Notes under the pieces: model-generated | Database searches by the model: none | What the model saw: the letters and a program-made list of their open reading frames with translations, nothing else | What the model was told of the DNA's origin: nothing | DNA from: Anaerolineaceae bacterium | Lineage (GTDB): Bacteria > Chloroflexota > Anaerolineae > Anaerolineales > Anaerolineaceae | Direction: 5' to 3' | Length of the DNA stretch: 64,000 bases | NCBI GenBank assembly: GCA_035542155.1 | Contig: DATKLX010000229.1 | Coordinates: 442 to 64,441, forward strand | Made by a program: the position numbers and the translations under genes | Shown: piece by piece, positions 3,134 through 57,337 of the stretch | Position numbering within the stretch: the stretch's first letter is position 1 | Layout: every line of letters starts with the position of its first letter

Positions 3134-5311
3134 ATGGCTTTAACCGTCTCCCCCAACCGCAGGAGCCGATTTTCCAGAAACCACTCATTCAGCATCCTTC
3201 TTCTACTGGTTTCGGGAGGCCTGTCATTTGGCGCGCTGATCACACCAGTTAACCTGCGGCCAGTCGCTTTCCCCCTGAAAGTGGGAGACGTTGCCCCGCA
3301 AGACATTCAGGCCCCACGGGCGATCACCTACACCAGCAGTATCCAAACTGAGATGGCCAGGCAGGCTGCAGAACAATCCGTGGCCCCGGTCTATTTACCG
3401 GCGGATCCAGCGCTCACTCGCAACCAGATTGAGAAGATGCGCAGCACACTCATATATGTCAATACGGTACGGCTGGATACGTATGCAACCCGGCCGCAGC
3501 AAATTTCCGATCTGCGCGCGATTCCTAACCTCAATTTGTCCACTGAGACAACCGGTAAACTGCTCAGTCTGAACGACGCGCAATGGCAGGCCGTTCAGGA
3601 GGAGTCCCTTAACGTGCTCGAGCTTGTTATGCGCAATGGGATCCGCGAGGATCGGGTGGACTATTACCGGCGAAGTATACCCACGCTGATCAGCTTTTCT
3701 TTATCTCAAGAGGAAGCGACCGTCATTTCGGAGCTGGTCTCAGCTTTTGTGGTTCCCAACAACCTGTACAGCGCCGAACAAACCGAAGCCGCTCGGCAGG
3801 CAGTGGTATCGAAAGTCCAACCTGTCACCCAGACTTATATCGCCGGGGAAACCATCGTTTTGCGGGGACAGGTGATCAGCGATACCGCCTGGGAAGCCAT
3901 GGAAGAGCTCGGCTTGGTGAAACCCCAGGACAATACCAGGGAAATTATCGGATCGGCGGCGCTGGTGCTTCTGCTAGGCGGTTTCGTCGCCCTATTTTTA
4001 GCCCGCTTGCGCAGAGATTATCCATTGAACGATCTGCGCAGCCTGGTTTTGATAGCCTCCTTATTTCTGGTATTTCTGTATGCTGCTCGCCTGATCATCC
4101 CAAACCGGACTGTGATCCCGTACCTTTTACCGATCTCCGCCTTTGGGCTTACGATCACTGTATTGTTCAACGCGGAGCTGGGGATGGTTCTGTCTCTGGT
4201 TTTAAGCATCCTGGCGGCATTCCAGTTACCAAATTCGCTGGACCTGACTTTGTTCTACATGCTGGGCAGCTTATGCGGGATCCTTTCCATCGGAAGAGCC
4301 AGGCGGGTCTCCAATTTCATCTGGTCAGGTCTGGCGATCGGCGCGGCGGGTTCTACGGTGATCGTGGCATACCGCCTTGCGGATGCCCAGACTGATTGGA
4401 TTGGGCTGGCGACGCTGATCGGGGTCGCTATGTTTAATGGGATTGCATCGGCGAGCATGACCCTGCTGTTCCAATTCTTTTTTGCCCAAATGCTGGGGTT
4501 AACCACCGCGATGCAGCTTCTGGAGATCTCCCGACCAGACCATCCCCTCCTGCAATACCTCCTGCGGAATGCGCCGGGAACCTACCAGCACAGTCTGCAG
4601 GTCGCCAACCTGGCCGAACAGGCTGCGGAAGCCATTGGCGCAGACGCTCTTTTAACGCGTGTTGGAGCCATCTACCACGACGCCGGCAAGGCAGCCAACC
4701 CGCTTTACTTTATCGAAAACCAGGTGCCTGGAAACCTCAATCCTCACGACGACCTGGATCCGCTGACCAGTTCGGCGACGATCATCCAGCATGTGGCGGA
4801 TGGTATGGCCATGGCAAGGAAACACCGCCTGCCGCCGCGGATCCAGAATTTCATCAGCGAACATCACGGGACCCTGCTGACCCGCTACCAGTACACCAAA
4901 GCCATTGAAGCGGCGGGCGGCCAAGCCGAGCTGGTGGACAAGGATCTGTTTCGTTACCCTGGCCCGAGGCCGCGCTCCAGGGAGACAGCCCTGGTCATGC
5001 TGGCAGACGGGGTCGAAGCGCGCGCTCGTGCAGAGCTGCCCAAAGACGAAATTGAGCTGCGGACATTAATCAAGCGGGTTTTCGATTTTTGCCAGACCGA
5101 AGGGCAGCTCGATGAAACCCGCCTGACCCTTAAGGATTTGACCACGGCCATCGATTCTTTCAGTAATACGCTACGGGGACTTTATCATCCACGCATCGTT
5201 TATCCAGAGCTGAAGGCAGCCGCAACTTCCCCTGAACTTCCCGCTGTTGAGCCAATTCTGAATGAAAATTCGTCCGCCCAATCCATACCAACCACCCCTC
5301 TTCCCAAATGA
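3134..5311 (+). CDS. 7TM-receptor-HD (HDIG) phosphohydrolase, PgpH/YqfF-like
   Basis: It has a large N-terminal extracytoplasmic region, about 7 TM helices and a C-terminal HD domain (HSLQVANLAE ... IYHDAGK). It sits in the conserved pgpH-ybeY-dgkA order. Confidence 0.8.
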   Translation: MALTVSPNRRSRFSRNHSFSILLLLVSGGLSFGALITPVNLRPVAFPLKVGDVAPQDIQAPRAITYTSSIQTEMARQAAEQSVAPVYLPADPALTRNQIEKMRSTLIYVNTVRLDTYATRPQQISDLRAIPNLNLSTETTGKLLSLNDAQWQAVQEESLNVLELVMRNGIREDRVDYYRRSIPTLISFSLSQEEATVISELVSAFVVPNNLYSAEQTEAARQAVVSKVQPVTQTYIAGETIVLRGQVISDTAWEAMEELGLVKPQDNTREIIGSAALVLLLGGFVALFLARLRRDYPLNDLRSLVLIASLFLVFLYAARLIIPNRTVIPYLLPISAFGLTITVLFNAELGMVLSLVLSILAAFQLPNSLDLTLFYMLGSLCGILSIGRARRVSNFIWSGLAIGAAGSTVIVAYRLADAQTDWIGLATLIGVAMFNGIASASMTLLFQFFFAQMLGLTTAMQLLEISRPDHPLLQYLLRNAPGTYQHSLQVANLAEQAAEAIGADALLTRVGAIYHDAGKAANPLYFIENQVPGNLNPHDDLDPLTSSATIIQHVADGMAMARKHRLPPRIQNFISEHHGTLLTRYQYTKAIEAAGGQAELVDKDLFRYPGPRPRSRETALVMLADGVEARARAELPKDEIELRTLIKRVFDFCQTEGQLDETRLTLKDLTTAIDSFSNTLRGLYHPRIVYPELKAAATSPELPAVEPILNENSSAQSIPTTPLPK

Positions 5312-6203: not shown

Positions 6204-7046
6204 ATGGAATCATTTCGTTTTGGAACCGTTGGCTCACCTTTATCGATGCCCAAAAAGCCAGGTGGCTCTGTCGGGGCAATTCTTCAACTGAGGAGCCTTG
6301 GGCTGACCGCGCTCGAACTGGGATGGGTGCAGTCGGTGCGGGTCAGCGAAGCGACCTGTGTGGAAATCCGCCGGACCGGCGCGGAGCAAGACGTGAAGAT
6401 CAGCGTCCACGCGCCGTATTTTATCAACCTGAATGCCTCGGATGATGAATGGCCCAATTCGCGCAAACGGTTAATAGACGCAGCATATTATGGAAATCTG
6501 GCCGGGGCTACGGATATCGTCTTTCACCCGGGCTCCTATTTCGGAATGCGCCCAGAGGAGATCCTGCCGAAAGCGATCAATCGGTTGGCGGATTGCGTGG
6601 CTGAGCTACGCAAACAGGGAAATCCGGTGACATTGCGGCCGGAGACGATGGGAAAATCCGCCATGCTAGGATCTCTGGAGGATACTCTGGCAATGAGTCA
6701 TGCAATCCCAGGGGTGGTACCCTGCCTGGATTTCGCCCACCTCCACGCTCGCCCGGGAGATGGCACGATGAACACGTACGGCGAATGGTGCCAGGTCCTG
6801 AACGATTATGCGAAGACCTTAGGGGATGCTCAACTGAAGCACCTGCATTGCCATCTTTCTGGGATCCAGTACTCGAAGCTGGGCGAGCGCAAACACGTTC
6901 CCATCCAGGAATCAGATCTGAACCTGGAAGAGTTGTTCCGAGCTTTACGGGATTGTGGAGCCGGCGGAAGGATAATGTGTGAAAGTCCCGATATGGAAAA
7001 CGATGCTTTGTACATGCAAAGCGTGTGGGGAAAAATTAACCAATAA
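6204..7046 (+). CDS. AP endonuclease family 2 / endonuclease IV-like TIM-barrel protein
   Basis: The metal-ligand blocks SVHAPYFINL, FHPGS, RPETMG, LDFAHLH and HCHLSG resemble the Nfo-type sugar-phosphate-isomerase/endonuclease fold. I prefer ATG 6204 over TTG 6192. Confidence 0.65.
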   Translation: MESFRFGTVGSPLSMPKKPGGSVGAILQLRSLGLTALELGWVQSVRVSEATCVEIRRTGAEQDVKISVHAPYFINLNASDDEWPNSRKRLIDAAYYGNLAGATDIVFHPGSYFGMRPEEILPKAINRLADCVAELRKQGNPVTLRPETMGKSAMLGSLEDTLAMSHAIPGVVPCLDFAHLHARPGDGTMNTYGEWCQVLNDYAKTLGDAQLKHLHCHLSGIQYSKLGERKHVPIQESDLNLEELFRALRDCGAGGRIMCESPDMENDALYMQSVWGKINQ

Positions 7047-7058
7047 AAAAGCCTTCTT

Positions 7059-7712
7059 TTAAATATACTCTTTCAGGTTATGCTCCACCGCGTAGGCCGC
7101 GGCTTCGGCCCGGTTGGATACCCCCAGTTTCGAGAGAATGCTGCTGACGTAATTGCGCACGGTGCCTTCGCCAAGAAAAAGCGCTTTGGCGATTTCGCGG
7201 TTCGTCTTCCCTTCAGAAACCAGAACAAGGACGTGTTTTTCCTGCTGGCTCAAGTTCGAAAATGCGGAGGCCTCTTCTTCCTTAACCGCTTTACGCACTT
7301 CCTGGAAAACGCGCTGCGTCACCGCCGGGTCGAGGAGAGCTTCACCGCGCCCAACCGCTTCCAGGGCTTTGATCAGATCTTCACCGCCAATCTGTTTGAG
7401 AATATACCCCGAAGCGCCCGCCCGAATGGCGGAAAAAAGCATCTCGTCTTCTGCATAGGAGGTCAGCATAACGACCCGGGTATCTGGAAAACGGCGGGTA
7501 ATTTCTTCGGTGGCCTCGATCCCTGATGCCCCCGGAAGGCGTATATCCATTAAAACAACATCGGGATTACTGCGCGAAACCTGTTCGACAGCTTCGCGAG
7601 CATTACTGGCTTCTCCAACAACCTCGAATTGGGTGTTGTGTTCGAGAAGCGCTTTCAATCCCAGGCGAACAACTTCATGGTCATCTACCAATAATATACG
7701 TTGTTTGCTCAT
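7059..7712 (-). CDS. response regulator, NarL/FixJ (LuxR-type HTH) family
   Basis: The receiver domain has ILLVDDH ... [10 protein letters not shown]. The C-terminal HTH has [22 protein letters not shown]. No cognate histidine kinase is nearby. Confidence 0.9.
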
Positions 7713-7806
7713 CGTAACCTTGCCTCCAGGTTGGTTTGCTGAAGATAAACAGGGTCAGTATAGCCGAGAGATAAATGAAAGGCAAGGGATCGCCTCTTTT
7801 TTCAAA

Positions 7807-8553
7807 TCAAGCTGTGCTGGCAGCCTGGCTTTCAAGCTTATTGCGGCGATAATCCACAAACCGGTAACCCACACCGCGCTCGGTCAGGATGTACTGCGGG
7901 TTCGCGGGATCTTTCTCAAGCTTTTGGCGGAGATAGTTGATATACAGCCGGACGTAATGGGGCTCGTCCCGATACTCATAGCCCCACACCTTCGCAAGGA
8001 GCTGATCGTGAGTCACCACCCAGCCAGCATTCTGGACCAGATGATACAGGAGCCGGTATTCGGTCGGGCGAAGCTTAACCAACTGGCCATCCACCCAGAC
8101 CTCGCGGCGGTCGAAGTCGATCTTCAAGCGGTCATCCACTTCGATCAGTCCGCGCATTCCACCTCCACCAGAATCGACTCGGCGCAGCACCGCGCGAACC
8201 CGGCTGACCAGCTCACGAGGGCTGAAGGGCTTGGTGATATAGTCATCCGCGCCAAGCTCCAACCCGCGGACGCGGTCGTCTTCCTCTCCTTTTGCTGTGA
8301 GCATTATGATCGGGACCGAGCTGATCTCGCGGATCATTTTCAATACTTCAAAGCCGTCCAGGTCTGGTAGCATTACATCCAAAAGAATCACGTCGGGGAG
8401 GGCATCACGTAGGCGCTGGATAGCCTGCATACCGCGATAGGCTTCGATCACCTGGAAACCATCATGTTCCAGGTTTAAACGAATAAACCGGACCATTCGC
8501 TCTTCGTCATCGACCACCAGGATCCGGCGATTCTTGAAAAGATCTTCTGGCAT
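7807..8553 (-). CDS. response regulator, OmpR/PhoB winged-helix family
   Basis: The receiver domain has ILVVDDEE ... VILLDVMLPDLDG. The winged helix has LRPTEYRLLYHL ... RGVGYRF. Confidence 0.9.
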   Translation of the reverse strand: MPEDLFKNRRILVVDDEERMVRFIRLNLEHDGFQVIEAYRGMQAIQRLRDALPDVILLDVMLPDLDGFEVLKMIREISSVPIIMLTAKGEEDDRVRGLELGADDYITKPFSPRELVSRVRAVLRRVDSGGGGMRGLIEVDDRLKIDFDRREVWVDGQLVKLRPTEYRLLYHLVQNAGWVVTHDQLLAKVWGYEYRDEPHYVRLYINYLRQKLEKDPANPQYILTERGVGYRFVDYRRNKLESQAASTA

Positions 8554-8559
8554 GGCTAC

Positions 8560-8799
8560 CTATTCCCTTACAAAGCCAATGATTTCTTCTTCTTCCCCGG
8601 TAGGCATGATTTCAATGAAATTGATTCTGGCAACGGGTAGCAAAATAGAAGTCACATTGGCATCCAAATAGTGTAAATCCTTGCCATCTTTCCGCCGTGG
8701 GTTTTTTACCGTGAGCAAGGTATCACCAGGGGAAGGCAGCTCATCCACCTCTCCCAGGACTGGATCCTCGTTTTGAATATGGATTAAAAGCGTAGGCAT
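8560..8799 (-). CDS. hypothetical 79-aa protein with acidic C-terminus
   Basis: This clean ORF lies 6 nt upstream of the OmpR-type regulator start on the same strand. I recognise no family. Confidence 0.55.
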   Translation of the reverse strand: MPTLLIHIQNEDPVLGEVDELPSPGDTLLTVKNPRRKDGKDLHYLDANVTSILLPVARINFIEIMPTGEEEEIIGFVRE

Positions 8800-8842
8800 T
8801 TGACTATCCTGAGTTAGATCGAGATACCAAACAAGATCCGGT

Positions 8843-9370
8843 TCAACGGCGGATTAAAACCTGGATTTTTAATTTGCCAAGCGCGAGCATATCGCCATGA
8901 TTCACCGGGTAGTCGACGTTTGGCATGATTTTCTGGCCATTCACACGCGTGCCGTTCGAAGAGCCCAAGTCCATGACGACCACGCGCTGGTTGATGATCT
9001 TCAAGGCAGCATGGAGCCGCGAAACCCCCTGGGCATATGCCTCGTATGGGGAAAGGTCCACATCCGGTAAAATGGGCTGGCCTTCTGCAACCCGGCCAAG
9101 GGTAAATTCAGAGCGGCCGGCGAGGGGAAGAATCTGGCCATTATCGACCATGTGAAGGGAAACCAGGGCATCGATCGCTGAGGATGGTGAGGGTGGCGTG
9201 GTCGCCGGCGGAGGTTGAGGCGTGAGCGGCGTCGAGGGGAGAGCATCCGATTGCGAGCGGATAAAAGCCTGTGTGGACAGCCGCTCGGTGAAAACAAGCT
9301 GCGCCCCACACTCACTGCAAAACAGGGCTCCAGCTATCTCTTGATGTTGGCAATTTGGACAGAGGATCAT
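8843..9370 (-). CDS. zinc-ribbon plus FHA domain protein
   Basis: The N-terminus has a CPNC...CSEC zinc ribbon, followed by a Pro/Thr/Ser linker. The C-terminal FHA domain has FTLGR ... VSRLHAAL ... DLGSSNGTRVNG. It overlaps the upstream gene by 4 bp. Confidence 0.85.
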   Translation of the reverse strand: MILCPNCQHQEIAGALFCSECGAQLVFTERLSTQAFIRSQSDALPSTPLTPQPPPATTPPSPSSAIDALVSLHMVDNGQILPLAGRSEFTLGRVAEGQPILPDVDLSPYEAYAQGVSRLHAALKIINQRVVVMDLGSSNGTRVNGQKIMPNVDYPVNHGDMLALGKLKIQVLIRR

Positions 9371-10848
9371 ACCTTTTTATACTCCGGACCAGACGGCAAA
9401 AGTAAAGCTCGCGTTCCATATTTGATCCGCTTGTCGCCTTCTTTGCTGAATTGTTGGCTGTGATGGACGTGTTCTGCCTCTACCAGGACCGTATGGGCCA
9501 ATTCACGCTCTCCCTGGGAGAGGAGGTGAGTTGCCAGATAATGTAAATGCTTGGTTGCCTGTTTAATCTCCCCGGCAGCCACCTCATTCCGCGCACGATC
9601 CTGCATCCGGTAAAGGGTTAAACGCGATAACGCCTGGACGATTTCATTGGGGGGAGGCTCCGGATCGGAATCAGGCGAAACGGGGCGGACGATCTGAAAA
9701 TTAAACCGCGTATGAGGCACTGACCGGGTTGGGATATCCATTTTTACTTTACCCCGGGCCAGGATTACCTCATCATGGTAATTAGATAGATCTTTTACCA
9801 TAAACTCCAGTAGTATGGATAAGCTTTGAAATTGAACGATATTGCCAACCCGGATCGGGCATTTGGTTGTCAACGGGCCGGATTCGGGCTGAATCCGAAA
9901 CGCGAAGCGCAGCTCAACATTCTCATCTGTTTCGTAATCTAAGGTAACCTGCTCTGCATATATTTTACCAAGGCTGTTGAATTTTTGCTCCAGGAATTTA
10001 TGCAGCTCTTTGGGAGCGGAAACGTACATGCTGGAACCGCCGCTGATACTGGCAATATTATCCAGGAAAGCATCATTCCATTCGTGGCCGATCCCTAGCC
10101 CGCTGATCCCAATTCCCTGCTGGGCAGAGGCTTCTGCCAGCTTCAGGCAGGCATCTTCATCGCCATAGGTGCGGCCATCCGTCAAAAGGATGACGTGGTT
10201 AATGTAAGAGGAGTTCAGATTGCGGCGTACCTGACCGATCCCCTCTTCCAGGCCATGCAGAATTTCAGTTCCGCCACCGGTTTGGAGCATACTTATTTTC
10301 GATTCGATGCGGCTCAAATCCGAAATCCGCGTGGCAGGGATCAGCACTTCGGCTCGATCGCTGAAGGTCACGATGGATATGAGATCCTGAGGCCGCATCT
10401 GGCGAAGCAAGGCAATCGCGTTGGATTTCACCATATCCATCCGCGCTCCCGCCATCGAAGTGGATCGATCCAGAATGAGACAGAGATTGAGCGGAGGAGC
10501 CACATTCACAGCCGGATCTGGAATTGAAGTCAGCTCCATGAGAACGTAAACCAGTTGGGGCTCAGCCAGTTGGGGCAGGCTCGTCCGGCTGTAGAGTGTA
10601 TTGACCGAGATCGAAGGGCTGGAATGTTCCTGAGCGGGCAACATGGCGTCATACTGCCGGCGTTTCTCCGGATTGGAGAGAACATCGTAGGCCTGTTGAA
10701 CCTGCAGAAACAGCTCAGGCGCTTCTGGATCGGGATTGGTGTCCGGGTGTAACTGCCGTGCTGCCTCGAAGTATGCACCCCGGATTTCCTCAGGAGTAGC
10801 ATCTCTGGGTACCCCCAACCGCACGTACAGATTTGAACCACCGATCAT
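9367..10848 (-). CDS. J-domain (DnaJ) - von Willebrand factor A fusion protein
   Basis: The J domain carries an HPD motif (ARQLHPDTNPD ... QAYDVLSNPEKRRQYD). The VWA domain carries a MIDAS DxSxS motif (LILDRSTSMAG) plus LLTDGRT. Confidence 0.85.
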   Translation of the reverse strand: MIGGSNLYVRLGVPRDATPEEIRGAYFEAARQLHPDTNPDPEAPELFLQVQQAYDVLSNPEKRRQYDAMLPAQEHSSPSISVNTLYSRTSLPQLAEPQLVYVLMELTSIPDPAVNVAPPLNLCLILDRSTSMAGARMDMVKSNAIALLRQMRPQDLISIVTFSDRAEVLIPATRISDLSRIESKISMLQTGGGTEILHGLEEGIGQVRRNLNSSYINHVILLTDGRTYGDEDACLKLAEASAQQGIGISGLGIGHEWNDAFLDNIASISGGSSMYVSAPKELHKFLEQKFNSLGKIYAEQVTLDYETDENVELRFAFRIQPESGPLTTKCPIRVGNIVQFQSLSILLEFMVKDLSNYHDEVILARGKVKMDIPTRSVPHTRFNFQIVRPVSPDSDPEPPPNEIVQALSRLTLYRMQDRARNEVAAGEIKQATKHLHYLATHLLSQGERELAHTVLVEAEHVHHSQQFSKEGDKRIKYGTRALLLPSGPEYKKV

Positions 10849-10861
10849 GCAGTATCCCCTA

Positions 10862-11755
10862 TTAATTCGGGTATTGGGCGAGGATTACGCTGATGTTATC
10901 CGGTCCTCCGGCTGCATTGGCCGCTTCCACCAGATTGTGGCAGGCTTTGGATGGGTTTTCTGCGCCGGTGATGATCGAGAACATATCCATCTCAGAGATC
11001 ACTCCCCAGAGCCCATCGCTGCATAACATCAGATAGCCGGGATGAGGCATCAGATAGGTGTTGACATCCGGATCAAAAGGCTCCCCCTGTCCAATCGCGC
11101 GATAGAGCACATTCCGCTGGGGATGAACAGCGGCTTCCTTTTCAGTAATCTGGCCTAATTCCATCAAGCGGCGAACGAGAGAATGGTCGCGGGTCACCGC
11201 CTGCATGCGCCCGTCGGGAAAGATAAAATAAGCCCGGCTGTCGCCCACGTGCGCGATGGTAAGCTGGTCACCCAGGATAAAGGCCGCGGTGAGAGTGGTA
11301 CCACCCCGGGGAGCCAGTCTCAAGACCGCCTGTTGAGCCTCGCGCACGCCCGTCTGGAGGATCTCCTGGAGAGGCTCGCCGCCCATATCAGTACGGATGC
11401 CAATATAGGGCAGGTAAATCTTGCGCATCAGGTAGGTGGACAGGGTCCGCACTGCGACGTTGCTGGCAACCTCGCCGTTTTCGTGACCGCCCATCCCATC
11501 GGCGACCATGAAAATTCCAAAAGGAAGGCTGTTTTCGCTACCGGAAATCATCGAGGACATCGCGAAGAGGCAGTCTTCGTTGTGATCTCTTTGCCGGCCG
11601 ACAGACTGCGCTGTCCCGACAACCAACTGGGGAGGGAAAAACCTGAGCGGTTCTGCAGTGACGGTTTCAAGCTGGTCTGGAGAGAGCGGGGCGGTTTGGA
11701 CACTCTCCGGAAGCTGCTTTTTTCGACCAAATAACCGGGAAATAATATCAATCAC
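10862..11755 (-). CDS. PP2C-family Ser/Thr protein phosphatase
   Basis: The motifs RDHNEDC, VADGMGGH and LCSDGLW, and the C-terminal GGPDNISVIL, are all present. Confidence 0.9.
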   Translation of the reverse strand: MIDIISRLFGRKKQLPESVQTAPLSPDQLETVTAEPLRFFPPQLVVGTAQSVGRQRDHNEDCLFAMSSMISGSENSLPFGIFMVADGMGGHENGEVASNVAVRTLSTYLMRKIYLPYIGIRTDMGGEPLQEILQTGVREAQQAVLRLAPRGGTTLTAAFILGDQLTIAHVGDSRAYFIFPDGRMQAVTRDHSLVRRLMELGQITEKEAAVHPQRNVLYRAIGQGEPFDPDVNTYLMPHPGYLMLCSDGLWGVISEMDMFSIITGAENPSKACHNLVEAANAAGGPDNISVILAQYPN

Positions 11756-11836
11756 GATGATCTCCTCTGCGAAAATGTTAAACCCCGCTTTGCCGCGATG
11801 CTTCGAACCATCTAATTGAATTTATGTGAAAAATGA

Positions 11837-14053
11837 TTATGCAAGGAGGGCATATAGAGTTTTATCCGTAGAACCTACATACAAGATATCATTATACACC
11901 ACTGGGGTACCAGTGATAGGTCCCCCGGTGTTGAATTTCCAGCGCAAGCGGCCGGTGCGGTATTCGAGGCAGTAGAGGTTATTGTCGACCGAGCCGCAGT
12001 AGAGGGAATCTTTATAGATGATCGGGGACCCGGATACCTGGTGATCGGTTTTAAAGCGCCAGATCTCTTTGGCATTTCCAGCGTCCAGGCAATAGATGAA
12101 GCCATCCGCAGATCCAGTAAAGATATAATTATCGACTTTCACTGGGGATGAGATGGAACCCTTACCCATGCGGAAACGCCAGATGACCCACCCAGATTTG
12201 GCGTCCAGGGCATAAAATGAAGTGTCCAGACAGCCAAAAAAGGCCACACCATTGGAGACCAACGGAGATGAAGTGATCCCACGCTTGGCCTTAAACCGCC
12301 ACTTCACCTCACCGCGAAAATCCGCGCAATAAAAATCGCCGCCTTCGCAGCCGAAATAGACATATTCGTTGGTAATGAATGGGGTCGAGCGGACCGCTTC
12401 GGTAGCCTCGACGCGCCAGGCTCGCCGGCTGGAAGCGATATTGACAGCGTGCAGGTAATGATCGTCTGAGCCGACGAACAGGTGACCCTCGGCAACGCGG
12501 GGCGAGCAGCGAATCGGCCCATCCGTGTAATACGTCCAGACCACCTTGCCCGTCCGGATCGAAACCGCGTGGACACGGCGGTCTTCGGATCCAATGAACA
12601 CAGTGTTCTCCGAAACAACCGGGCGGCCGACGATGCCGCCGTCGGTCGCGTATTTCCAGAGGAAATTCCCGTTCGAGCTGTTCAGGGCATAGAGATTATA
12701 GTCGTAGGAGCCGACGAAGAGGATACCATTATCCAGGGTAGGCGTTCCACGGATTTCGTCTTCGCACTCGAACGTCCAGAGCGGCTTGATCGTGTCGGCC
12801 GAGGGACCAATCGCCTGAGTAGTAAACGAAAGGCGAGCCAGCGCCCCGGTCTTGCGCGCCACCATCATCAGAGCATCTTTCATAATCTCAGCGCTCTGGA
12901 AACGGTCCTTGGGCTCATACTGGAGCGCAGTGTTAATTACTGTTTCCAGTTCGGCTGAAACGCCCTGGTTGATTTTGCGGATGGGACGCTCCGAAAAGGT
13001 AAATGGCGGCTCGAGACGGGGGTCTTTGCGGGTAAGCAGGTGATGAAACGTAGCCCCGAGCGCATAGATATCCGCCAGAGGCGTCGCCTCACCGCGGTAC
13101 TGCTCGGGAGGAGAATAGCCTTCCGTTCCAATCATCGTCCCTTTTTGACCCGATTTGAAAATCTTGGCAATCCCAAAATCGACCAAAACAATATGGCCAT
13201 TCTGATTGACCATAATGTTGGAGGGCTTCATATCCCGGAAAATGATCGGCTCCGGTTTGTGGTTATGAAGGAAATGTAAAACATCACACAGCTCGATCGC
13301 CCAGGCGATCACCTGATCTTCGGCGAAGAAGCCAGGGGTCTCGGCCAGGACTGCATCCAGATCCTTCCCATGGATGTACTCTTCTACCAGGTAAGAGCGT
13401 TCATCGTGCGTGAAATAATCGTAAATTCTGGGGATGGCCGGATGGTTTAGGGTGACCAGAATGTTCGCTTCGCGCTCAAAGTTCTGCACGATCGTCTGCC
13501 GAACCAGGGGATCCCTGGCCTGGTTGATCATCTCTTTCACTGCCACCAGTTTGACGACGTTCGGAAAATGGAGATCTCTCGCCCGGTAAACGGACCCCAT
13601 CCCACCGACGCCGATCACTTCCTGGATCGAATATCGGTTTACCAGAATCGAGCCCGCTTGGAGCTGTTGTTCTGGTGGCTGCCCGGAATTGAAGTTTTGA
13701 GTGATATGCTGTGTATCCAGGTTATTCTTCCTTGTACCAGAGATATATGGGTAAGCTCCACAACCTATATTGGCGGGGTTGCCGGACTGGCCGGGTATTC
13801 TATACATCCGGGGTGAGAATAAGTTGAATAAATTATAAGCAGCAATGGTTTCTTTTGCAACCGTTTCACAATTAACAGATATATCAACTGCCTGATCGAG
13901 GTGAAATTCTGGCTTTGCAGAGGGAATTCCGCCTTGCCGATCCCCGGCCTTGAGGGTATGATATTCAGGACCGGTAATTACTCCGGCCACACCAGTTGAA
14001 CCTGCTACAGGACTCATCGATGACGGCAGATTACGAAACCTATCTTTCGCCAT
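11837..14053 (-). CDS. Hanks-type Ser/Thr kinase fused to PQQ-like beta-propeller repeats
   Basis: The kinase motifs are GVGGMGSVYRA, VAVKEM, FRDMKPSNIMV, DFGIAK and SPPEQ. They are followed by about 7-8 repeats of the YxLYALNxxxGxxxW type. I see no TM helix. The start may be 14017 instead. Confidence 0.85.
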   Translation of the reverse strand: MAKDRFRNLPSSMSPVAGSTGVAGVITGPEYHTLKAGDRQGGIPSAKPEFHLDQAVDISVNCETVAKETIAAYNLFNLFSPRMYRIPGQSGNPANIGCGAYPYISGTRKNNLDTQHITQNFNSGQPPEQQLQAGSILVNRYSIQEVIGVGGMGSVYRARDLHFPNVVKLVAVKEMINQARDPLVRQTIVQNFEREANILVTLNHPAIPRIYDYFTHDERSYLVEEYIHGKDLDAVLAETPGFFAEDQVIAWAIELCDVLHFLHNHKPEPIIFRDMKPSNIMVNQNGHIVLVDFGIAKIFKSGQKGTMIGTEGYSPPEQYRGEATPLADIYALGATFHHLLTRKDPRLEPPFTFSERPIRKINQGVSAELETVINTALQYEPKDRFQSAEIMKDALMMVARKTGALARLSFTTQAIGPSADTIKPLWTFECEDEIRGTPTLDNGILFVGSYDYNLYALNSSNGNFLWKYATDGGIVGRPVVSENTVFIGSEDRRVHAVSIRTGKVVWTYYTDGPIRCSPRVAEGHLFVGSDDHYLHAVNIASSRRAWRVEATEAVRSTPFITNEYVYFGCEGGDFYCADFRGEVKWRFKAKRGITSSPLVSNGVAFFGCLDTSFYALDAKSGWVIWRFRMGKGSISSPVKVDNYIFTGSADGFIYCLDAGNAKEIWRFKTDHQVSGSPIIYKDSLYCGSVDNNLYCLEYRTGRLRWKFNTGGPITGTPVVYNDILYVGSTDKTLYALLA

Positions 14054-15411
14054 TCACATGGCGCTACGGCAGCCAGGAAATTCGTAGAATCTGGAGCGAA
14101 ACGAATAAGCGCCGCCTGTGGCGGAAAATCTGGGTCGCCCTGGCAGCGGTTGAAGCCGAGTACGGGCTGGTTACTTCCAGTCAGTTGGCCGATCTCCAGG
14201 CTCATCAGGACGAGGTGGATCTCGACCAGGCGCTGGAGGTCGAAAAAGAAATCCAGCACGACCTGATGGCAGAGCTAAAGATATTTGCCAGACAATGCCC
14301 GGTGGGTGGAAGGATCATCCACCTGGGAGCAACCTCGATGGATATCGAGGATAATGCTGACACGCTGCGCATCCGCGACTCGCTCGATCTGATCCTCGCC
14401 AGAGTAAAAAGCCTCCTGGCCGCATTCGCGAACCAGATCGAGCGCTGGGCCGATACTCCGATCATCGCCTTTACCCATCTCCAACCCGCCGAGCCATCCA
14501 CGCTGGGATACCGCCTGGCCTTCAGCGGGCAGGATTTGCTCAAGGATTTTTCCCTGCTGAAACAATTGCGTGTGGAACTGCGGGGAAAAGGATTTAAAGG
14601 TGCGGTTGGGACTTCGGCAACGTTTGCGGATCTAATCCCCCCCGGCCATCTGGACGATTTCGAAGATAGGCTCGGCCAGATTCTGGAGTTAGCCTTCTTT
14701 CCGGTCACTCACCAGACATATCCACGCAAACAGGAATTCTGGATCGTTTCAGCGTTGGCGGGTGTGGGCGCCACGCTCTCCAAATATGCGTTCGACTTGA
14801 GGATTCTGCAATCACCACCGATCGGTGAATGGTCTGAACCGTTCGGGAAGGAGCAAATCGGCTCTTCGGCCATGCCGTTCAAGCGCAACCCGATGCGGGC
14901 CGAGAAGATCGATTCCCTGGCGCGCTCGCTGGCCCAGATGCCGCGGACAGCCTGGGACAACGCCGCCAATTCACTCCTGGAACGAACCCTGGACGACAGC
15001 GCCAACCGGCGGACCATCCTACCGGAAACCTTCCTGATCGTGGATGAGCTGTTAACCACCAGCCAGATACTGGTGGAAGGATTGAAAGTGGACAGCAAGG
15101 CCCTGGAGCGAAATCTCACCAATTATGGATCTTTCGCCGCGACAGAAAAAATCATGGTTGCGGCTGTCAAAGCCGGGGCCGACCGCCAGGAGATGCATGC
15201 CCACCTGCGCGATCTGTCACTGCAGGCCTGGGATGCAATGCGCAGTGGAAAAGAAAACTCCCTGGCAGACCTGCTGATCAACGATCCGGTCCTGAGACAA
15301 TATCTGGATGCTGATACCATCCACAAGCTGCTCGACCCGGCTGGCCACGTAGGACTGGCCGGGCCCAGGGCTCGAAAACTGGCGGCCGAAATCAGGAAAA
15401 CTCTGGAATGA
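14020..15411 (+). CDS. purB: adenylosuccinate lyase
   Basis: The fumarate-lyase signature GSSAMPFKRNP is present. I prefer ATG 14020 (MTADYETYLSPF...) over TTG 13996. Confidence 0.9.
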   Translation: MTADYETYLSPFTWRYGSQEIRRIWSETNKRRLWRKIWVALAAVEAEYGLVTSSQLADLQAHQDEVDLDQALEVEKEIQHDLMAELKIFARQCPVGGRIIHLGATSMDIEDNADTLRIRDSLDLILARVKSLLAAFANQIERWADTPIIAFTHLQPAEPSTLGYRLAFSGQDLLKDFSLLKQLRVELRGKGFKGAVGTSATFADLIPPGHLDDFEDRLGQILELAFFPVTHQTYPRKQEFWIVSALAGVGATLSKYAFDLRILQSPPIGEWSEPFGKEQIGSSAMPFKRNPMRAEKIDSLARSLAQMPRTAWDNAANSLLERTLDDSANRRTILPETFLIVDELLTTSQILVEGLKVDSKALERNLTNYGSFAATEKIMVAAVKAGADRQEMHAHLRDLSLQAWDAMRSGKENSLADLLINDPVLRQYLDADTIHKLLDPAGHVGLAGPRARKLAAEIRKTLE

Positions 15412-17723: not shown

Positions 17724-18221
17724 TCAGGGCGTTTGGATCACCGCCAGGAAATCTGCTGCAGCCCAGCCGTTGCGGTTCGCATCGTAGGGTGCGACCAGAT
17801 ACCACCAGGTCAGACCATCCGCTGAGTGCGGGCCATCCTTGACCTGAAACACTTCGGATTCGGCGCCGAGAAACTTAAGAGCGCCGCTTTTTCCGGGTTG
17901 CTCTCTCAAACGCAGCCCGTCCCCGCCGGTCCCGGAAATCTGCACGTAGATGCCGATTGAGATGGGCCCGCCGGCTTGCTGGGGAACCGTCTGGAGGGTG
18001 GGCGTTGGGGTGGGTGGAAGATCGGGCAGAACGATATTCGGGGTGAGTGTAGGAGCAGGGACGATGACCACTTCCGCGGTAGGAGCAAGCTGGTGAGAGG
18101 CTGGAGCGCGGAGATAGACCAGCATGAGCCAGACCAGGACGATGAGTAGCCCGGCAAGCGCCAGCCCGCCTAAGACGACCCAGACATTGAGAAAATCCTT
18201 CCACCAGGGGTTTCGCTTCAT
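17724..18221 (-). CDS. membrane-anchored bacterial SH3 domain protein
   Basis: It has an N-terminal TM helix, a Pro/Thr linker and an SH3b-like C-terminus (GLRLREQPGKSG ... WWYLV ... GWAAADFL). Confidence 0.6.
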   Translation of the reverse strand: MKRNPWWKDFLNVWVVLGGLALAGLLIVLVWLMLVYLRAPASHQLAPTAEVVIVPAPTLTPNIVLPDLPPTPTPTLQTVPQQAGGPISIGIYVQISGTGGDGLRLREQPGKSGALKFLGAESEVFQVKDGPHSADGLTWWYLVAPYDANRNGWAAADFLAVIQTP

Positions 18222-19330
18222 TACAATGCTGATGCCGGCATGAGGAAGAAAGCGATGCTGAGGATCAAATAAACTCCCAGCAATGCAGCTCCTTCGAGCC
18301 AGTTCGATTCGCCGTCCGAGGCAACCAGGGCGGCGATCAACACAGCCGCAACGAGGGCCAACAACTCGAACAGGTTGAAGATCAGGGTCAAAGGGTTCCC
18401 AATCATCAGGCTGATAAAAACCAGCAGCGGGGCAACAAAGAGAGCAATCTGCAGGCTGGAAGACATTGCGATTTCGACGCTGAGCTCCATCTGGTTACGC
18501 ATGGCAACCCGGACGGCGACCAAATGCTCAGCCACGTTACCGATGATGGGGATGAGAATGATCCCGAGGAAGAATTCGGAAAGGCCCAACTGCCTGACCA
18601 CCGGTTCGACGGCGCCGACGAGGAGTTCGCTAAGCACCACCACCCCAACTGTCGCCAAAGCCAGAAAGATGACCGCAGTACGGATCGACCAGTGGGCAAC
18701 GGGAGCCGATTGAGCTCCTTTCTGCTCAGCCGGTTCGGAATAGGTGATTGGGCTTTTCTGGTCGCGGAGGCTATAAACAATCCCCAGTATGTAGAGGATA
18801 ATCATGACAGCCGCCACACCGAGGCTTAAGGCTTCGACTTTTGAGCTGCCTTCCGGACCGATCGAGTGGCTGAAGAGGGAAGGGATCACCAGGGCTACGA
18901 CAGAAAGGGTCAGCAACACTGCCTGCTGGCCCACATGTTTTCGGTCGAAACGTTGGACGCCGTGCCTTGCGCCGCCGAGCAGCATTGAAAAACCCATTAC
19001 GAAAAGAAGGTTGCCGAGGATCGAGCCCGTTATGGAAGCTTTCACCAGTTCCAGAAGCCCGGCACGGATGGCGACCAGGGTGATGATCAACTCGGCGGCA
19101 TTGCCGAGGGTGGCGTTCAGTAATCCACCGATCTTGGGACCGGTATGGACGGCGATCGCCTCGGTCGCCTCCCCGATCCAGCCGGAGAGGGGGATAACGC
19201 CCACAGCGGACAGAATAAAGACCCATACATCCCCCCAATTCCCCCATCGCGCCAGAAGAGCCAATGGAAAAGCCAGGATGAGCCAGTTCAGCGGATTCTT
19301 AGCGAAAAAGGCAGCCAGAGTTTTGACCAT
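18221..19330 (-). CDS. calcium/proton (CAX family) exchanger
   Basis: It is a polytopic membrane protein with the two CaCA alpha-repeat motifs GNAAELIITLVA and GNVAEHLVAV. The start is either 19330 or 19354. Confidence 0.85.
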   Translation of the reverse strand: MVKTLAAFFAKNPLNWLILAFPLALLARWGNWGDVWVFILSAVGVIPLSGWIGEATEAIAVHTGPKIGGLLNATLGNAAELIITLVAIRAGLLELVKASITGSILGNLLFVMGFSMLLGGARHGVQRFDRKHVGQQAVLLTLSVVALVIPSLFSHSIGPEGSSKVEALSLGVAAVMIILYILGIVYSLRDQKSPITYSEPAEQKGAQSAPVAHWSIRTAVIFLALATVGVVVLSELLVGAVEPVVRQLGLSEFFLGIILIPIIGNVAEHLVAVRVAMRNQMELSVEIAMSSSLQIALFVAPLLVFISLMIGNPLTLIFNLFELLALVAAVLIAALVASDGESNWLEGAALLGVYLILSIAFFLMPASAL

Positions 19331-19393
19331 AGGCCTGAACCAATTATAACCCAAAGAACCTATGATATAATCTCGAAGGGATATAGAGAAGGA

Positions 19394-20425
19394 ATGCGTG
19401 AAACGCCGTTGTTAAATAATCGCTATGAACTCCAACAAACCCTGGGTTCCGGGGGGATGGCTGTTGTATACCGGGCCAGGGATCAGATGCTGGAGCGCCC
19501 GGTGGCGATCAAAATCCTGCGTGAAGATTATTCCAGCGACGGCGCATTTCGAGAGCGTTTTCACCAGGAAGCCAAAGCTGCTGCTAACCTCTCCCATCCA
19601 AACATCGTCACCGTCCATGATTTTGGGCTGGATAATAACCGCCTGTTTCTGGTCCTTGAGTACGTTCCCGGGACCGACCTGAAAACGTTGATCAAAAAGC
19701 GAGGCCGGTTTTCGATCGAGGAAGCCCTGAACATTATGATCCAGGCCTGCGCAGGAGTTGGCTATGCGCATCGAGCCGGCCTCGTCCACTGCGACATTAA
19801 ACCCCATAATATCCTTGTCACTCCGGACCAGAGAGTTAAGGTCACCGATTTCGGCATCGCCCGCGCTCTGGCGACCATCCAACCCGATGAGCAGAACGAC
19901 ATTGTTTGGGGCTCACCCCAGTACTTCTCCCCCGAACAGGCCGCCGGCCAGGCCCCCTCGCCCGCCTCGGACGTGTATTCGTTGGGTGTCATCCTCTACG
20001 AGCTACTGACCGGCCAGCTCCCCTTTCATGCCGACACTTCGACCGAACTGGCTCGCATGCACCGCGAGATGGTGCCGCCGCCGCCCAGACAGCTCAACCC
20101 CTCTATCTCGCCAGCGCTCGAACAGATCATTGTGAAAGTCCTTTCCAAAGAACCTTCAGCCCGCTACCGGACCGCGGACCAGTTCGGCAGGGTGCTAATC
20201 AACCTCCTCCCCCAGGAAAACGGCGCTCAATCCAGCGCGGTCACCCAGGCCGCACAGTCCCAGTCATCAGCACCGGAATCTACCTCGCAGCCGGTCAAAG
20301 AAGATCACAGTCTGGATTTTGATTGGGTAACGCTCGCCTTAGGCCTGCTCGCAACGATCGCAGTGGGAGGGCTAATTCCCTACTGGCTTTTCGTCTGGTT
20401 TTCCATCAATCCCATGCCCAGGTGA
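19394..20425 (+). CDS. Hanks-type Ser/Thr protein kinase with C-terminal TM helix (PrkC-position)
   Basis: I prefer the start at ATG 19394 (MRETPLLNNRYEL). Kinase motifs are GSGGMAVVYRA, VAIKIL, HCDIKPHNILV, DFGIA and SPEQ. It ends with a single TM helix. Confidence 0.85.
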   Translation: MRETPLLNNRYELQQTLGSGGMAVVYRARDQMLERPVAIKILREDYSSDGAFRERFHQEAKAAANLSHPNIVTVHDFGLDNNRLFLVLEYVPGTDLKTLIKKRGRFSIEEALNIMIQACAGVGYAHRAGLVHCDIKPHNILVTPDQRVKVTDFGIARALATIQPDEQNDIVWGSPQYFSPEQAAGQAPSPASDVYSLGVILYELLTGQLPFHADTSTELARMHREMVPPPPRQLNPSISPALEQIIVKVLSKEPSARYRTADQFGRVLINLLPQENGAQSSAVTQAAQSQSSAPESTSQPVKEDHSLDFDWVTLALGLLATIAVGGLIPYWLFVWFSINPMPR

Positions 20426-37745: not shown

Positions 37746-37801
37746 TTATATTGGGTAGGCTCGCCGTTTCATCGTACAATCGGATTGGCTTGGATGTTTT
37801 T

Positions 37802-46460: not shown

Positions 46461-47237
46461 TTACCGGAATGGACGGGCTACGACTACCACCCGGTTTGTG
46501 TTGTTGTCCGGCGGCCAGCAGGATACCAACGTGACCCGCTCATCGTCGGTATGCTCCAGCCAGCGGGCATTCTGAAGGCGAATTTCCAGCTCTTGATACT
46601 TTTCCGGCAGGATCATCACATTGGAGACGACGTAAACGAACACCTGAGGACCTGAATAGAGCATCACAAAATCGCCGGCTTTGAGATTGGATAGGTGGGC
46701 AAATACTTTTCCATGGATGTTGTGATGTCCGATCAGGACCGTATTGCCAGGTACTCCCAGGCTGGCCGAATCCGAATTCCATCCAGCCGCAAGTTCATCG
46801 GGCGCATTCCACTGTTCGAAAAATGACTCTCCGATCTTCACCACTTTCAACAAGGAAGGTTTGACCGGCGCATCCAGATTGATCGCCGGAATGACCAGGC
46901 GATCCGGAAGATAAACCACGCCCGGTACATGGGTCGGCGCCGGTGTGGGGATTGGCAGCCCCTGAGTGGTACCTGACGCCGGGTCACCCGAGGCAACCGC
47001 TGCTTCATCCGGTGTTGGACTGACAGTCCCGTCTGGCGCAGCCTCTGTCGCACTCTGGGTTTCGGCGGGCAAAAAGTATGGCACGAAGCCCTGCGAAGTA
47101 GACTGCTCTAACCGGTCAAACTGGTAATCCAGGCTTTCATCCGGATACAACAGATCGTTCACTACTCCTGAAAAGCCCGTGAAAATCATCAGCATTCCAA
47201 AGGCGGCCAGCCATTGGTTCAACCGTGGAAAGTGCAT
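46461..47237 (-). CDS. sortase family protein
   Basis: It has an N-terminal TM anchor and a Pro-rich linker. The catalytic blocks are NTVLIGHHN (His), RVTLVSCWP (Cys, TLxTC-like) and NRVVVVARP (Arg). Confidence 0.75.
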   Translation of the reverse strand: MHFPRLNQWLAAFGMLMIFTGFSGVVNDLLYPDESLDYQFDRLEQSTSQGFVPYFLPAETQSATEAAPDGTVSPTPDEAAVASGDPASGTTQGLPIPTPAPTHVPGVVYLPDRLVIPAINLDAPVKPSLLKVVKIGESFFEQWNAPDELAAGWNSDSASLGVPGNTVLIGHHNIHGKVFAHLSNLKAGDFVMLYSGPQVFVYVVSNVMILPEKYQELEIRLQNARWLEHTDDERVTLVSCWPPDNNTNRVVVVARPFR

Positions 47238-48772: not shown

Positions 48773-49711
48773 CTATAACAGGGCAGTTTGCAGTTTATAT
48801 CCGTATGCCTCGTTATTCAGAATCAAGGCCGGATTAGCAGGGTCTTTTTCAAGCTTGCGCCTGAGCAGGTAGATGAGATATTTCAGGCGCTTCCGAGCCA
48901 GAGATGTATCCTCACCCCAGACCTCATTGGCGAGGGTCTCATAATGGACCGTTTTTGGAGCATGCTTGGCCAGGACTGCCAGCACCGCAAACTCTTTAAT
49001 GGTTAGGTGAATAGGACGATTTCTTATGCTGACCTCCATCGTTTCGAGATTGATGATCAGTGGAATGCTGGGAAAAACCAGGGTAGTTTTATGCTCAGGC
49101 GCTTTCGAGCGGCGTAAAACCGCCTTGACCCGCGCAATGACCTCCGCATTGAAAAACGGTTTGGTGACGTAATCATCCACTCCGATCTGCAGCCCTTGTA
49201 CGATATCCTCCTTGCTACCTTTAGCGGATACGATAATCACCGGAGCAGCGGTCATCTGGCGAAGATAATCGAATGTCTGCCAGCCATCCGTTTCGGGCAT
49301 CATCAGATCAAGCAGAATGATGTCGGGTGGAATATCGGCGCATTTTTTGAGAGCTTCAGACGCATTGCTTGCCCCGATGACGTCAAATCCAGCCATTCTC
49401 AAGATCTCCTTGAGCAGGTGAAGCGTTTCCAGATCATCATCGACAATTAACACCCGCTGGCGGGACGGCCCCTGATAGATCACGTCCAGGTCTAATCCAG
49501 GCGAACCGGAATGGCGGGTGGAGGTATTCGATGCAATTGCAGACAAACGAGTCTCAGAACTCACTTTTCCTACCAGCTTTCCAATTTGACGGTTCCGGAT
49601 GAGGGGTTCATTGAGCCAGAAAACAATTTGGCTTTGGTTAGGTAGCTCATTCAAAGATAATATTGTTAAAATAATCTGATCCATGCAGGCGCACGGAACA
49701 GGAATTGCCAA
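48773..49711 (-). CDS. response regulator, OmpR/PhoB winged-helix family, with about 85-aa N-terminal extension
   Basis: The receiver domain has VLIVDDDLE ... IILLDLMMPETDG. The winged helix has LTIKEFAVLAVL ... YGYKL. The start is uncertain (ATG 49711, ATG 49684 or an internal GTG). Confidence 0.8.
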   Translation of the reverse strand: MAIPVPCACMDQIILTILSLNELPNQSQIVFWLNEPLIRNRQIGKLVGKVSSETRLSAIASNTSTRHSGSPGLDLDVIYQGPSRQRVLIVDDDLETLHLLKEILRMAGFDVIGASNASEALKKCADIPPDIILLDLMMPETDGWQTFDYLRQMTAAPVIIVSAKGSKEDIVQGLQIGVDDYVTKPFFNAEVIARVKAVLRRSKAPEHKTTLVFPSIPLIINLETMEVSIRNRPIHLTIKEFAVLAVLAKHAPKTVHYETLANEVWGEDTSLARKRLKYLIYLLRRKLEKDPANPALILNNEAYGYKLQTALL

Positions 49712-57312: not shown

Positions 57313-57337
57313 AAAAAACGGCGAGAAGCCGTTTTTT
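57313..57337 (+). terminator. intrinsic terminator after ssrA
   Basis: AAAAAACGGC-GAGAA-GCCGTTTTTT. Confidence 0.8.

Follow-up and report, generated by a model that had tools for sequence, protein, structure and literature searches.

The DNA analysed here, a window of 64,000 nucleotides from an Anaerolineaceae bacterium (assembly GCA_035542155.1, contig DATKLX010000229.1), carries six adjoining genes that comparison across related genomes marks as one functional unit: a Hanks-type Ser/Thr kinase with a PQQ-type propeller, a PP2C phosphatase, a fusion of a J domain with a von Willebrand factor A scaffold (J-VWA), a protein joining a zinc ribbon to a forkhead-associated domain (ZnR-FHA), an acidic protein of 79 amino acids (s79) and an OmpR-type response regulator. 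A seventh gene, for a NarL-type regulator, follows. Among characterised systems the archaeal ArnA/ArnB switch comes closest, and by analogy with it we lean, with slightly better than even confidence, towards the reading that this constitutively promoted operon encodes a soluble phospho-threonine switch together with a transcription factor.

A scan of one genome per GTDB species gave at least 593 relatives of J-VWA; the best 80 loci belong to Anaerolineae in every case, Anaerolinea thermolimosa and A. thermophila among them. The order kinase, PP2C, J-VWA, ZnR-FHA, s79, OmpR-type regulator is invariant, and on one strand, in all 80 species-representative loci; it is complete in 64 of them and broken by contig ends only. 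Median junctions within the unit measure 24, 5, −4, 19 and 3 nucleotides (nt), at least 90% of junctions are 60 nt or shorter, and 63 of 69 related loci share the −35/−10 pair, placed as it is in the window. The conserved order, the tight junctions and the conserved promoter together indicate one operon, an arrangement that is far from chance and a class-wide core feature of Anaerolineae. Median identities to the window proteins are 67% for the kinase, 53% for PP2C, 50% for J-VWA, 53% for ZnR-FHA, 58% for s79, 82% for the OmpR-type and 85% for the NarL-type regulator. The cluster is single-copy, with flanking genes that vary between loci and housekeeping genes on both sides.

In the window itself the seven open reading frames (ORFs) all lie on the minus strand, with successive junctions of 81, 13, −4 (an overlap), 43, 6 and 94 nt; genes, coordinates and gaps agree with a first-pass annotation made from the sequence. 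That annotation had counted all seven as one cluster; the first six do form the conserved unit, but the NarL-type gene falls outside it. This gene follows the operon in 35 of the 67 loci with room for it, at a median gap of 144 nt, in many cases with an Hsp20 gene between it and the OmpR-type gene, and in about 24 of the 35 it has its own promoter, TTG(T/C)CA-17-TATACT, 23-47 nt upstream of the start codon. Since it occurs in about half of the loci, behind a wide gap and with its own conserved promoter, it is by these measures a loose, separately transcribed neighbour.

Around the operon promoter, k-mer enrichment brought out the promoter itself and a clade-specific second TTGCAAT copy, and no OmpR-type direct repeat was evident in this simple k-mer scan. 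The second ATTGCAAT copy stands about 15-20 nt upstream of the operon −35 element TTGCAA in nine loci of one subclade (L041, L043, L046, L055, L056, L060, L072, L073 and L076). This copy, which is not evident in the window, might serve as an operator or resemble an UP element. An Rfam scan of positions 6500-14600 gave no match.

The neighbourhood of J-VWA and s79 is kept beyond close relatives, as the first-pass annotation had asked of a genuine system: it recurs in Anaerolineales, Aggregatilineales and Promineifilum/Ardenticatenia-type lineages. Breadth searches listed the best 80-150 matches, and among the matches listed all were from Chloroflexota. All six genes are found in Ca. Promineifilum breve (L093), and again in a lineage whose J-VWA is 36% identical to that of the window (L086 and L087). 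In these last two loci a RelA/SpoT gene, for a synthetase/hydrolase of guanosine tetraphosphate (ppGpp), stands directly after the OmpR-type gene on the same strand (L086:11175-13409, L087:7235-9469). Other lineages hold less of the unit. An Aggregatilineales locus cut off on its upstream side (L090) has J-VWA, FHA, s79 and OmpR genes; an Ardenticatenaceae-like locus (L088) has kinase, J-VWA, FHA and s79 genes, without PP2C and without the regulator; one locus (L092) has only kinase, PP2C and s79, and another (L091) only s79 and OmpR. In two Thermomicrobiales-like loci (L084 and L081) an eroded kinase adjoins s79 or is fused with it.

The scaffold provides the link to the archaeal switch. J-VWA matches DnaJ at residues 6-67 (PF00226, 73.7 bits against a cutoff of 27.8) and VWA at residues 121-287 (71 bits). 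Its AlphaFold2 (AF2) model (predicted local distance difference test, pLDDT, 84; predicted template modelling score, pTM, 0.80) comprises a J domain (10648-10833) with an HPD motif at residues 34-36, a VWA domain (9988-10488) with an adhesion site that depends on metal ions (MIDAS), an eight-strand beta-sandwich (9676-9963, strands within residues 296-391) and a four-helix bundle (9406-9648, helices within residues 401-481), and the protein ends in the invariant tail KYGT479RAL. The MIDAS residues D127, S129, S131, T194 and D224 are conserved in 100% of 85 sequences. Foldseek placed 4fx5 (E 4e-24), ArnB itself (8s05; E 2e-23, TMt 0.72-0.75) and 5a8j (E 6e-20) on top, and the family profile matched ArnB (PDB 8S05) at E 1.3e-19, together with the ArnB paralogue vWA2 (5A8J) and the Catenulispora structure 4FX5. 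As modelled, J-VWA has the tripartite ArnB fold of VWA domain, beta-sandwich and helical bundle. T440, T453 and S468 are at least 87% conserved and T479, in a pT-x-x-L context, is 100% conserved (82-85 orthologues).

The partner gene overlaps the scaffold gene by 4 bp, with a median junction of −4 nt in 79 loci. Its product has a Zn-ribbon at residues 4-25 (9296-9361; Zn_Ribbon_1/DZR matched) and an FHA domain at residues 103-165 (8876-9064; 51.4 bits), and both the CxxC...CxxC pairs and the residues of the FHA phospho-threonine pocket (GR...SxxH...NG) are kept in 82 sequences. In Sulfolobus, ArnB is the scaffold of the ArnA/ArnB switch and ArnA combines a Zn finger with an FHA domain; unphosphorylated ArnB is held loosely by the Zn finger, once ArnC has phosphorylated threonines of the ArnB helical bundle, binding by the FHA domain becomes tight, and PP2A undoes this, with an output that is transcriptional and probably indirect, through other DNA-binding proteins (PMC6509490, PMC12852372).

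The cluster kinase consists of a Pkinase domain at residues 141-394 (about 12872-13633; 142.8 bits) and a PQQ/BamB-type propeller at about residues 423-738 (about 11840-12787; Beta-prop_ACSF4/PQQ_2 matched). Its FRD, DFG and SPPE motifs are kept in 97-100% of orthologues, FRD invariantly replacing HRD, and all catalytic motifs are intact. The score against the AfsK equivalog NF053615 is 219.8 bits, so far under the cutoff of 1300 that the cluster kinase is not an AfsK orthologue; the two share an architecture of kinase and PQQ propeller without a transmembrane segment. The ORF given for it by the first-pass annotation, 14053-11837, exists, but its start is likely wrong. Residues 1-110 of the 738 are unconserved, orthologues measure 590-650 residues even with longest-ORF calling, and the conserved operon promoter (13860-13832) sits inside the called ORF, all of which suggests that the ORF is over-extended at its 5' end and likely begins at M83 (13807). 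The first 246 nt (13807-14053, minus strand) would then probably be non-coding, and with this start the overlap with the divergent adenylosuccinate-lyase ORF (13996-15411) disappears. A second Hanks-type kinase of the window (19145-20425, plus strand; Pkinase 192.8 bits, no other domain) is 30% identical to the first; its longest ORF overlaps a convergent Na/Ca-exchanger gene (18221-19354), and its real start is probably further downstream.

The phosphatase matches PF00481 at 58.5 bits and the Stp1-like model NF033484 at 209 bits, under the 230 cutoff. Its metal motifs are intact, and it is present in 77 of the 80 loci, the remaining ones being cut by contig ends. Writer (kinase), eraser (PP2C), reader (FHA) and MIDAS-VWA/J adaptor are thus packaged together with catalytic and binding motifs intact, as had been proposed at first pass; the domain calls made there were likewise upheld by Pfam and NCBIfam hidden Markov model searches on every product. 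The maximum Kyte-Doolittle value over 19 residues is 1.27 across the seven cluster proteins, so that the earlier view of a cluster without transmembrane helices also holds.

The first-pass annotation had further pointed to work on conflict systems dependent on nucleoside triphosphates, and this comparison did not survive. Generic kinase defence models in PADLOC match the kinase domain, and in an actinobacterial theme set out by Kaur et al. 2020 (PMC7159879), GAP1-N2 GTPases are surrounded by a kinase with a Zn-ribbon, a PP2C and a standalone vWA; the cluster could on this view serve in anti-phage defence or conflict, as a vWA/kinase/PP2C-type system. Nevertheless, no GTPase, MoxR or STAND nucleoside triphosphatase (NTPase) and no effector domain occurs among the seven products or their neighbours, and PADLOC matches are limited to the generic kinase and PP2C models, with none for J-VWA, FHA or s79. 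The cluster moreover belongs to the inherited core genome, being collinear throughout the class, strongly conserved and set amid housekeeping genes. We rejected the conflict reading on these grounds and grant it only a very small probability.

The fifth gene product, s79, is acidic as first described (isoelectric point 4.55), with an invariant NPRxRDGK loop and an acidic C-terminal tail. It has no sequence match in Pfam, NCBIfam or PDB. Its AF2 model (pLDDT 87) is a five-strand small barrel without an N-terminal helix, for which Foldseek gave weak Sm/LSm/SmAP-like matches (TM 0.5-0.6, E 1e-2 to 1e-1), and no LSM or Hfq Pfam match appeared even at E ≤ 5. Out of 1.84 billion representatives the family accounts for 237 clusters (at 50% identity), almost every one made up of standalone proteins of about 80 residues, and its named members come from Chloroflexota only (Aggregatilineales, Ardenticatenaceae, Thermomicrobium); s79 is a Chloroflexota-restricted family, modelled as a small beta-barrel. 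It is the common denominator of every cluster variant, the reduced ones included, and occurs with the kinase where the regulator is missing and with the regulator where no kinase adjoins. One Thermomicrobiales-like locus (L084:8951-10825) encodes a fusion of the propeller with an s79 domain from which strands one and two are missing, and the same protein is found on three contigs. We considered this fusion as a 'Rosetta-stone' functional link and rejected it, since the kinase gene is decayed and the s79 part incomplete; it counts as evidence of adjacency only. Erosion of the kinase-propeller gene beside s79, by in-frame stop, EFG or frameshifts, was seen both there and at L081:8600-10255, and the kinase of the Thermomicrobium locus is frameshifted.

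The last gene of the operon encodes a regulator with Response_reg (111 bits) and Trans_reg_C (92 bits) domains, 78-89% identical across 73 species and separated from s79 by a median of 3 nt (72 loci). D15, D16, D59, T86, Y105 and K108 are 100% conserved in 76 of 76 orthologues, and the corresponding residues of the NarL-type receiver (acidic pair, Asp, T, Y and K) in 35 of 35. Such conservation implies that Asp phosphorylation is under selection and that a distal histidine kinase is to be expected; judged by their residues, both regulators are expected to be ordinary Asp-phosphorylated receivers whose histidine kinases are encoded elsewhere. The first-pass proposal that the receivers are controlled by something other than a histidine kinase was consequently not borne out. 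Its description of the regulators as 'kinase-less' is right in so far as no histidine kinase adjoins them, but the statement is one of position only, given fully canonical receivers. Its claim that the entire 64 kb holds no histidine kinase agrees with a Pfam search for HisKA/HATPase_c, which found none in the products of the cluster or of 30 more ORFs (among them all other window ORFs of at least 250 residues except two housekeeping ORFs adjoining the cluster, 3134-5311 and 13996-15411), and with an H-box/G-box motif scan over the whole window, equally negative. Among 89 related loci, 86 have no histidine-kinase-like ORF nearby, and 3 have one within 10 kb, always more than 6 kb away. A third OmpR-type regulator of the window (48773-49711, minus strand), with an N-terminal extension of about 86 residues if the longest ORF is real, likewise has no neighbouring histidine kinase, which suggests that unlinked regulators are common in this genome; its gene lies upstream of a 482-residue ORF without a Pfam match (47252-48700, minus strand) and a sortase gene (46461-47237, minus strand).

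The best NCBIfam matches of the OmpR-type regulator are RpaB, MtrA, PhoB and YycF, at about 214-226 bits (RpaB and MtrA at about 225) and all under their cutoffs. These names raise the thought that the cluster is the counterpart of Gram-positive growth and division modules (FhaA/FhaB-PstP-PknA/B, AfsK-DivIVA, PrkC-WalR), with an output in envelope or filament growth through an essential regulator of MtrA/WalR/RpaB kind. The identity of the regulator across the class is what one would expect of core regulators, ZnR-FHA has FhaB/FipA as its best match (29 bits), and the kinase is AfsK-like in architecture. However, all these scores stay under curated cutoffs, no RodA/FtsW, PBP or DivIVA gene lies in or beside the cluster in any locus, and there is no PASTA or other extracytoplasmic sensor. 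We regard a growth or division module as unlikely.

Under the reading of a phospho-threonine switch with a transcription factor, a single strong, constitutive promoter would drive both the switch genes and a master-type OmpR-family regulator. By analogy with ArnAB, the propeller-bearing kinase would phosphorylate the bundle and tail of J-VWA, with T440, T453, S468 and T479 as candidate sites, and might also phosphorylate the S/T/P-rich linker of ZnR-FHA; the FHA domain would then clamp the scaffold in a 'loose to tight' transition, and PP2C would reset it. In the clade of the window only, the HPD-bearing J domain could let the switch engage DnaK. s79, which accompanies the kinase in some lineages and the OmpR-type gene in another, may be the link by which the OmpR-family regulator senses the state of the switch. 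The regulator would additionally need Asp phosphorylation by a histidine kinase encoded elsewhere. The phospho-dependence of FHA binding, the identity of the phosphosites, the engagement of DnaK, the s79 linkage and the control of the OmpR-type regulator by the Ser/Thr module are all things that we infer.

Several points weigh against such a switch. Every operon member is known here from its sequence and, for J-VWA and s79, from a predicted structure. ZnR-FHA has no detectable sequence similarity to ArnA (phmmer against PDB returned other FHA domains at E ≥ 1e-4, not 5A8I or 8S05), so the pairing may be convergent, and the tripartite ArnB fold is widespread and mostly not phospho-regulated. 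The OmpR-type regulator retains a fully canonical receiver, and its gene is missing from the cluster in L088, L092 and L084, which means that it need not be a target. The Sm-like assignment of s79 is weak (E about 1e-2), the protein has no invariant Ser or Thr, and the kinase gene that holds the propeller::s79 fusion of L084 (P0421) is decaying: an in-frame stop interrupts it, and it reads EFG for DFG. Finally, in the sister clade (Promineifilum/Ardenticatenia-type; P0423-P0542) 118 of 120 proteins lack HPD, and DnaK recruitment is therefore not the core or ancestral mechanism.

In that sister clade the scaffolds (e.g., L093:9001-10479 and L086:7956-9449) still have a J-like domain with recognisable helices I and III, in an unchanged operon. 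The first-pass annotation had called the J domain Hsp70-recruiting; this suits the clade of the window, where 83 of 85 cluster orthologues keep HPD, but not its sister, and Hsp70 recruitment is accordingly plausible, on motif conservation, within the window's clade. Stress genes hint at a tendency to gather downstream of the operon. About 22 related loci (L010:13116-13556, L019:13102-13542, L068:13053-13493 and others) have, inserted between the OmpR-type gene and the NarL-type one and reading in the same direction, a gene for a 146-residue Hsp20/alpha-crystallin protein, with its own promoter and a conserved palindrome, CTTGCGT-N7-ACGCAAG, between −35 and −10 that resembles the HspR operator (HAIR, HspR-associated inverted repeat). 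Ten related loci (L013:13410-13760 and nine more) have a thioredoxin gene directly downstream of the OmpR-type gene on the same strand. The window has no such Hsp20 gene and no convincing copy of the HAIR-like palindrome, which gave 3 matches at 3 mismatches there, against 2.35 expected.

These observations bear on a proteostasis or stress feedback modelled on HspR-DnaK or sigma32-DnaK/J titration, in which DnaK would receive a bound client (the regulator or s79) from the J domain, free DnaK would set the activity of the regulator, and Ser/Thr phosphorylation would gate the exchange. The invariance of HPD in the window's clade and the same-strand Hsp20 or thioredoxin gene directly downstream in many related loci fit it. 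The loss of HPD from a clade with the same operon does not; nor does the Hsp20 gene's own promoter and palindromic operator, or its absence from the window, and no dnaK or grpE gene lies in the cluster. We judge such a feedback improbable. A bolder form of the switch, an ArnAB-type device fused to a working J domain and wired through a lineage-specific Sm-like connector to a master OmpR regulator, so that in Anaerolineales a eukaryote-like kinase would control a two-component transcription factor through a gated hand-over to Hsp70 in place of phosphorylating it, appears to us doubtful, though a little less so; if true, it would be a previously undescribed coupling of Ser/Thr signalling, chaperones and two-component output.

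The main rival divides the operon into two units: a signalling module of kinase, PP2C, J-VWA, FHA and s79 with unlinked targets, and an ordinary OmpR regulator driven by a distal histidine kinase alone, the two merely sharing a transcript. Adjacency would then reflect co-expression, or control of the operon by the regulator, and carry no kinase-to-regulator signal. The fully conserved receiver residues, the absence of the OmpR-type gene from the cluster in L088, L092 and L084, and the third OmpR-type regulator of the window, similarly without a neighbouring histidine kinase, all speak for this division. Against it stand the median of 3 nt at the s79-OmpR junction over 72 loci, the survival of the s79-OmpR pair where no kinase module adjoins (L091), and the want of any conserved promoter-sized gap before s79 or the OmpR-type gene; nor did the simple k-mer scan bring out an OmpR-type repeat near the operon promoter. 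We therefore treat the two-unit arrangement as a real but lesser possibility, and continue to prefer the switch coupled to its co-transcribed regulator.

Table 1. Genes and promoters of the cluster (positions in the window).
Feature	Position	Strand	Basis
Operon promoter TTGCAA-17-TATAAT	13832..13860	-	Consensus scan 10/12; kept in related loci
Hanks Ser/Thr kinase + PQQ/BamB-type propeller	11837..14053	-	Pkinase, Beta-prop_ACSF4/PQQ_2
PP2C Ser/Thr phosphatase, Stp1-like	10862..11755	-	PF00481, NF033484
J domain + ArnB-type VWA scaffold (J-VWA)	9367..10848	-	Pfam DnaJ, VWA; AF2/Foldseek
Zn-ribbon + S/T/P-rich linker + FHA (ZnR-FHA)	8843..9370	-	Pfam FHA, Zn_Ribbon_1/DZR
79-residue acidic, predicted small beta-barrel protein (s79)	8560..8799	-	AF2 model; no family
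OmpR-family response regulator, final operon gene	7807..8553	-	Response_reg, Trans_reg_C
Promoter of the NarL-type gene, TTGCCT-17-TATACT	7757..7785	-	Consensus scan; kept in related loci
NarL/LuxR-family response regulator	7059..7712	-	Response_reg, GerE

Elsewhere in the window, a 1072-residue protein (57336-60554, plus strand) combines CHAT (caspase-like), TPR and PD40/beta-propeller domains. Architectures of this kind have been discussed in connection with conflict or programmed death; the protein has no relation to the cluster. A 773-residue ORF (37751-40072, plus strand) has no Pfam match at E ≤ 1e-3.

Filamentous bacteria, the Anaerolineae abound in sludge, sediments and the subsurface, and to our knowledge almost nothing is known about their signalling. 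Each module of the operon has precedents, and the combination does not: an ArnB-type scaffold bearing a J domain, a dedicated kinase and PP2C, s79 and a co-transcribed regulator. As far as we know, this is the first bacterial gene cluster shown with the whole ArnA/ArnB logic, kinase and phosphatase included. The operon adds two features absent from the archaeal system, namely the J domain and a directly co-transcribed DNA-binding regulator. Since the output path of ArnAB is unknown in archaea, a likely output encoded in the same operon offers a tractable route to it, and cultured hosts exist in Anaerolinea thermophila and A. thermolimosa. Furthermore, s79 is a concrete candidate for how Hanks kinases connect to two-component regulators. 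The first-pass annotation had thought the architecture of J-VWA, small acidic ORF and regulators uncharacterised, and indeed a literature search, with most subscription journals outside its coverage, found no paper describing the cluster and nothing beyond the related theme of Kaur et al. 2020.

Among known systems, the GAP1-N2 GTPase-centric ones (theme 3 of PMC7159879) resemble the operon in a kinase often fused to a Zn-ribbon and in PP2C and standalone vWA neighbours, but as described there they are centred on a GTPase and FNIII-repeat proteins and read as conflict systems, whereas the cluster has no such NTPase. The threonine-phosphorylation pathway of the type VI secretion system (T6SS; PpkA with its VWA, PppA, Fha1/TagH) also unites Ser/Thr kinase, PP2C, FHA and VWA in one switch. 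There, however, the VWA lies in the periplasm as part of a fusion with a membrane kinase, and the switch leads to the assembly of a secretion machine, while here everything is cytoplasmic; ZnR-FHA scores 23.9 bits against the TagH model (cutoff 120), and no T6SS genes were seen in the scanned window ORFs or the annotated related loci. A Hanks kinase and a canonical Asp-phosphorylatable regulator share an output in PrkC-WalR, Stk1-CovR and PknH-DosR. In the cases of such Ser/Thr-two-component cross-talk known to us, kinase and regulator do not share a conserved operon, and no FHA, VWA or J adaptor or small connector takes part.

The actinobacterial FhaA/FhaB(FipA)-PstP-RodA-PbpA-PknA-PknB cluster likewise places FHA reader, PP2C eraser and Hanks writer in one core-genome operon, with a disordered S/T-rich linker in the FHA protein. 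It differs in having RodA/PBP genes, PASTA and transmembrane segments and another gene order, whereas the present operon has a VWA scaffold, a J domain, s79 and a response regulator, and its FHA protein reaches 29 bits against an FhaB cutoff of 125. AfsK-KbpA-AfsR of Streptomyces and RqkA of Deinococcus share with it the soluble Hanks kinase followed by a C-terminal PQQ-type propeller. AfsK phosphorylates a regulator, AfsR, with a DNA-binding domain of the Trans_reg_C family, and the small KbpA binds and modulates the kinase. Partners with a VWA, FHA or J domain do not occur in these systems, AfsR belongs to the SARP/NB-ARC proteins and contains no receiver, and between s79 and KbpA no relation appeared in the family searches, which gave no matches. 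Nevertheless, in AfsK/AfsR/KbpA a kinase with a PQQ propeller already acts on a Trans_reg_C regulator alongside a small kinase-binding partner, a precedent that supports the reading of a switch with its own transcription factor.

Closest of all stands ArnA/ArnB of Sulfolobus acidocaldarius (8S05, 5A8J, 5A8I). Both systems pair a scaffold of MIDAS-VWA, beta-sandwich and C-terminal bundle with a protein of N-terminal Zn module and C-terminal FHA domain, and in both a Hanks-type kinase (there ArnC/ArnD) writes and a Ser/Thr phosphatase erases. The differences are that the present system is bacterial and holds its kinase and phosphatase within the same operon; that the phosphatase is PP2C in place of PP2A; that the kinase bears a PQQ-type propeller in place of OB/TPR domains; and that the scaffold carries an N-terminal J domain and the operon a 79-residue protein and a co-transcribed response regulator.

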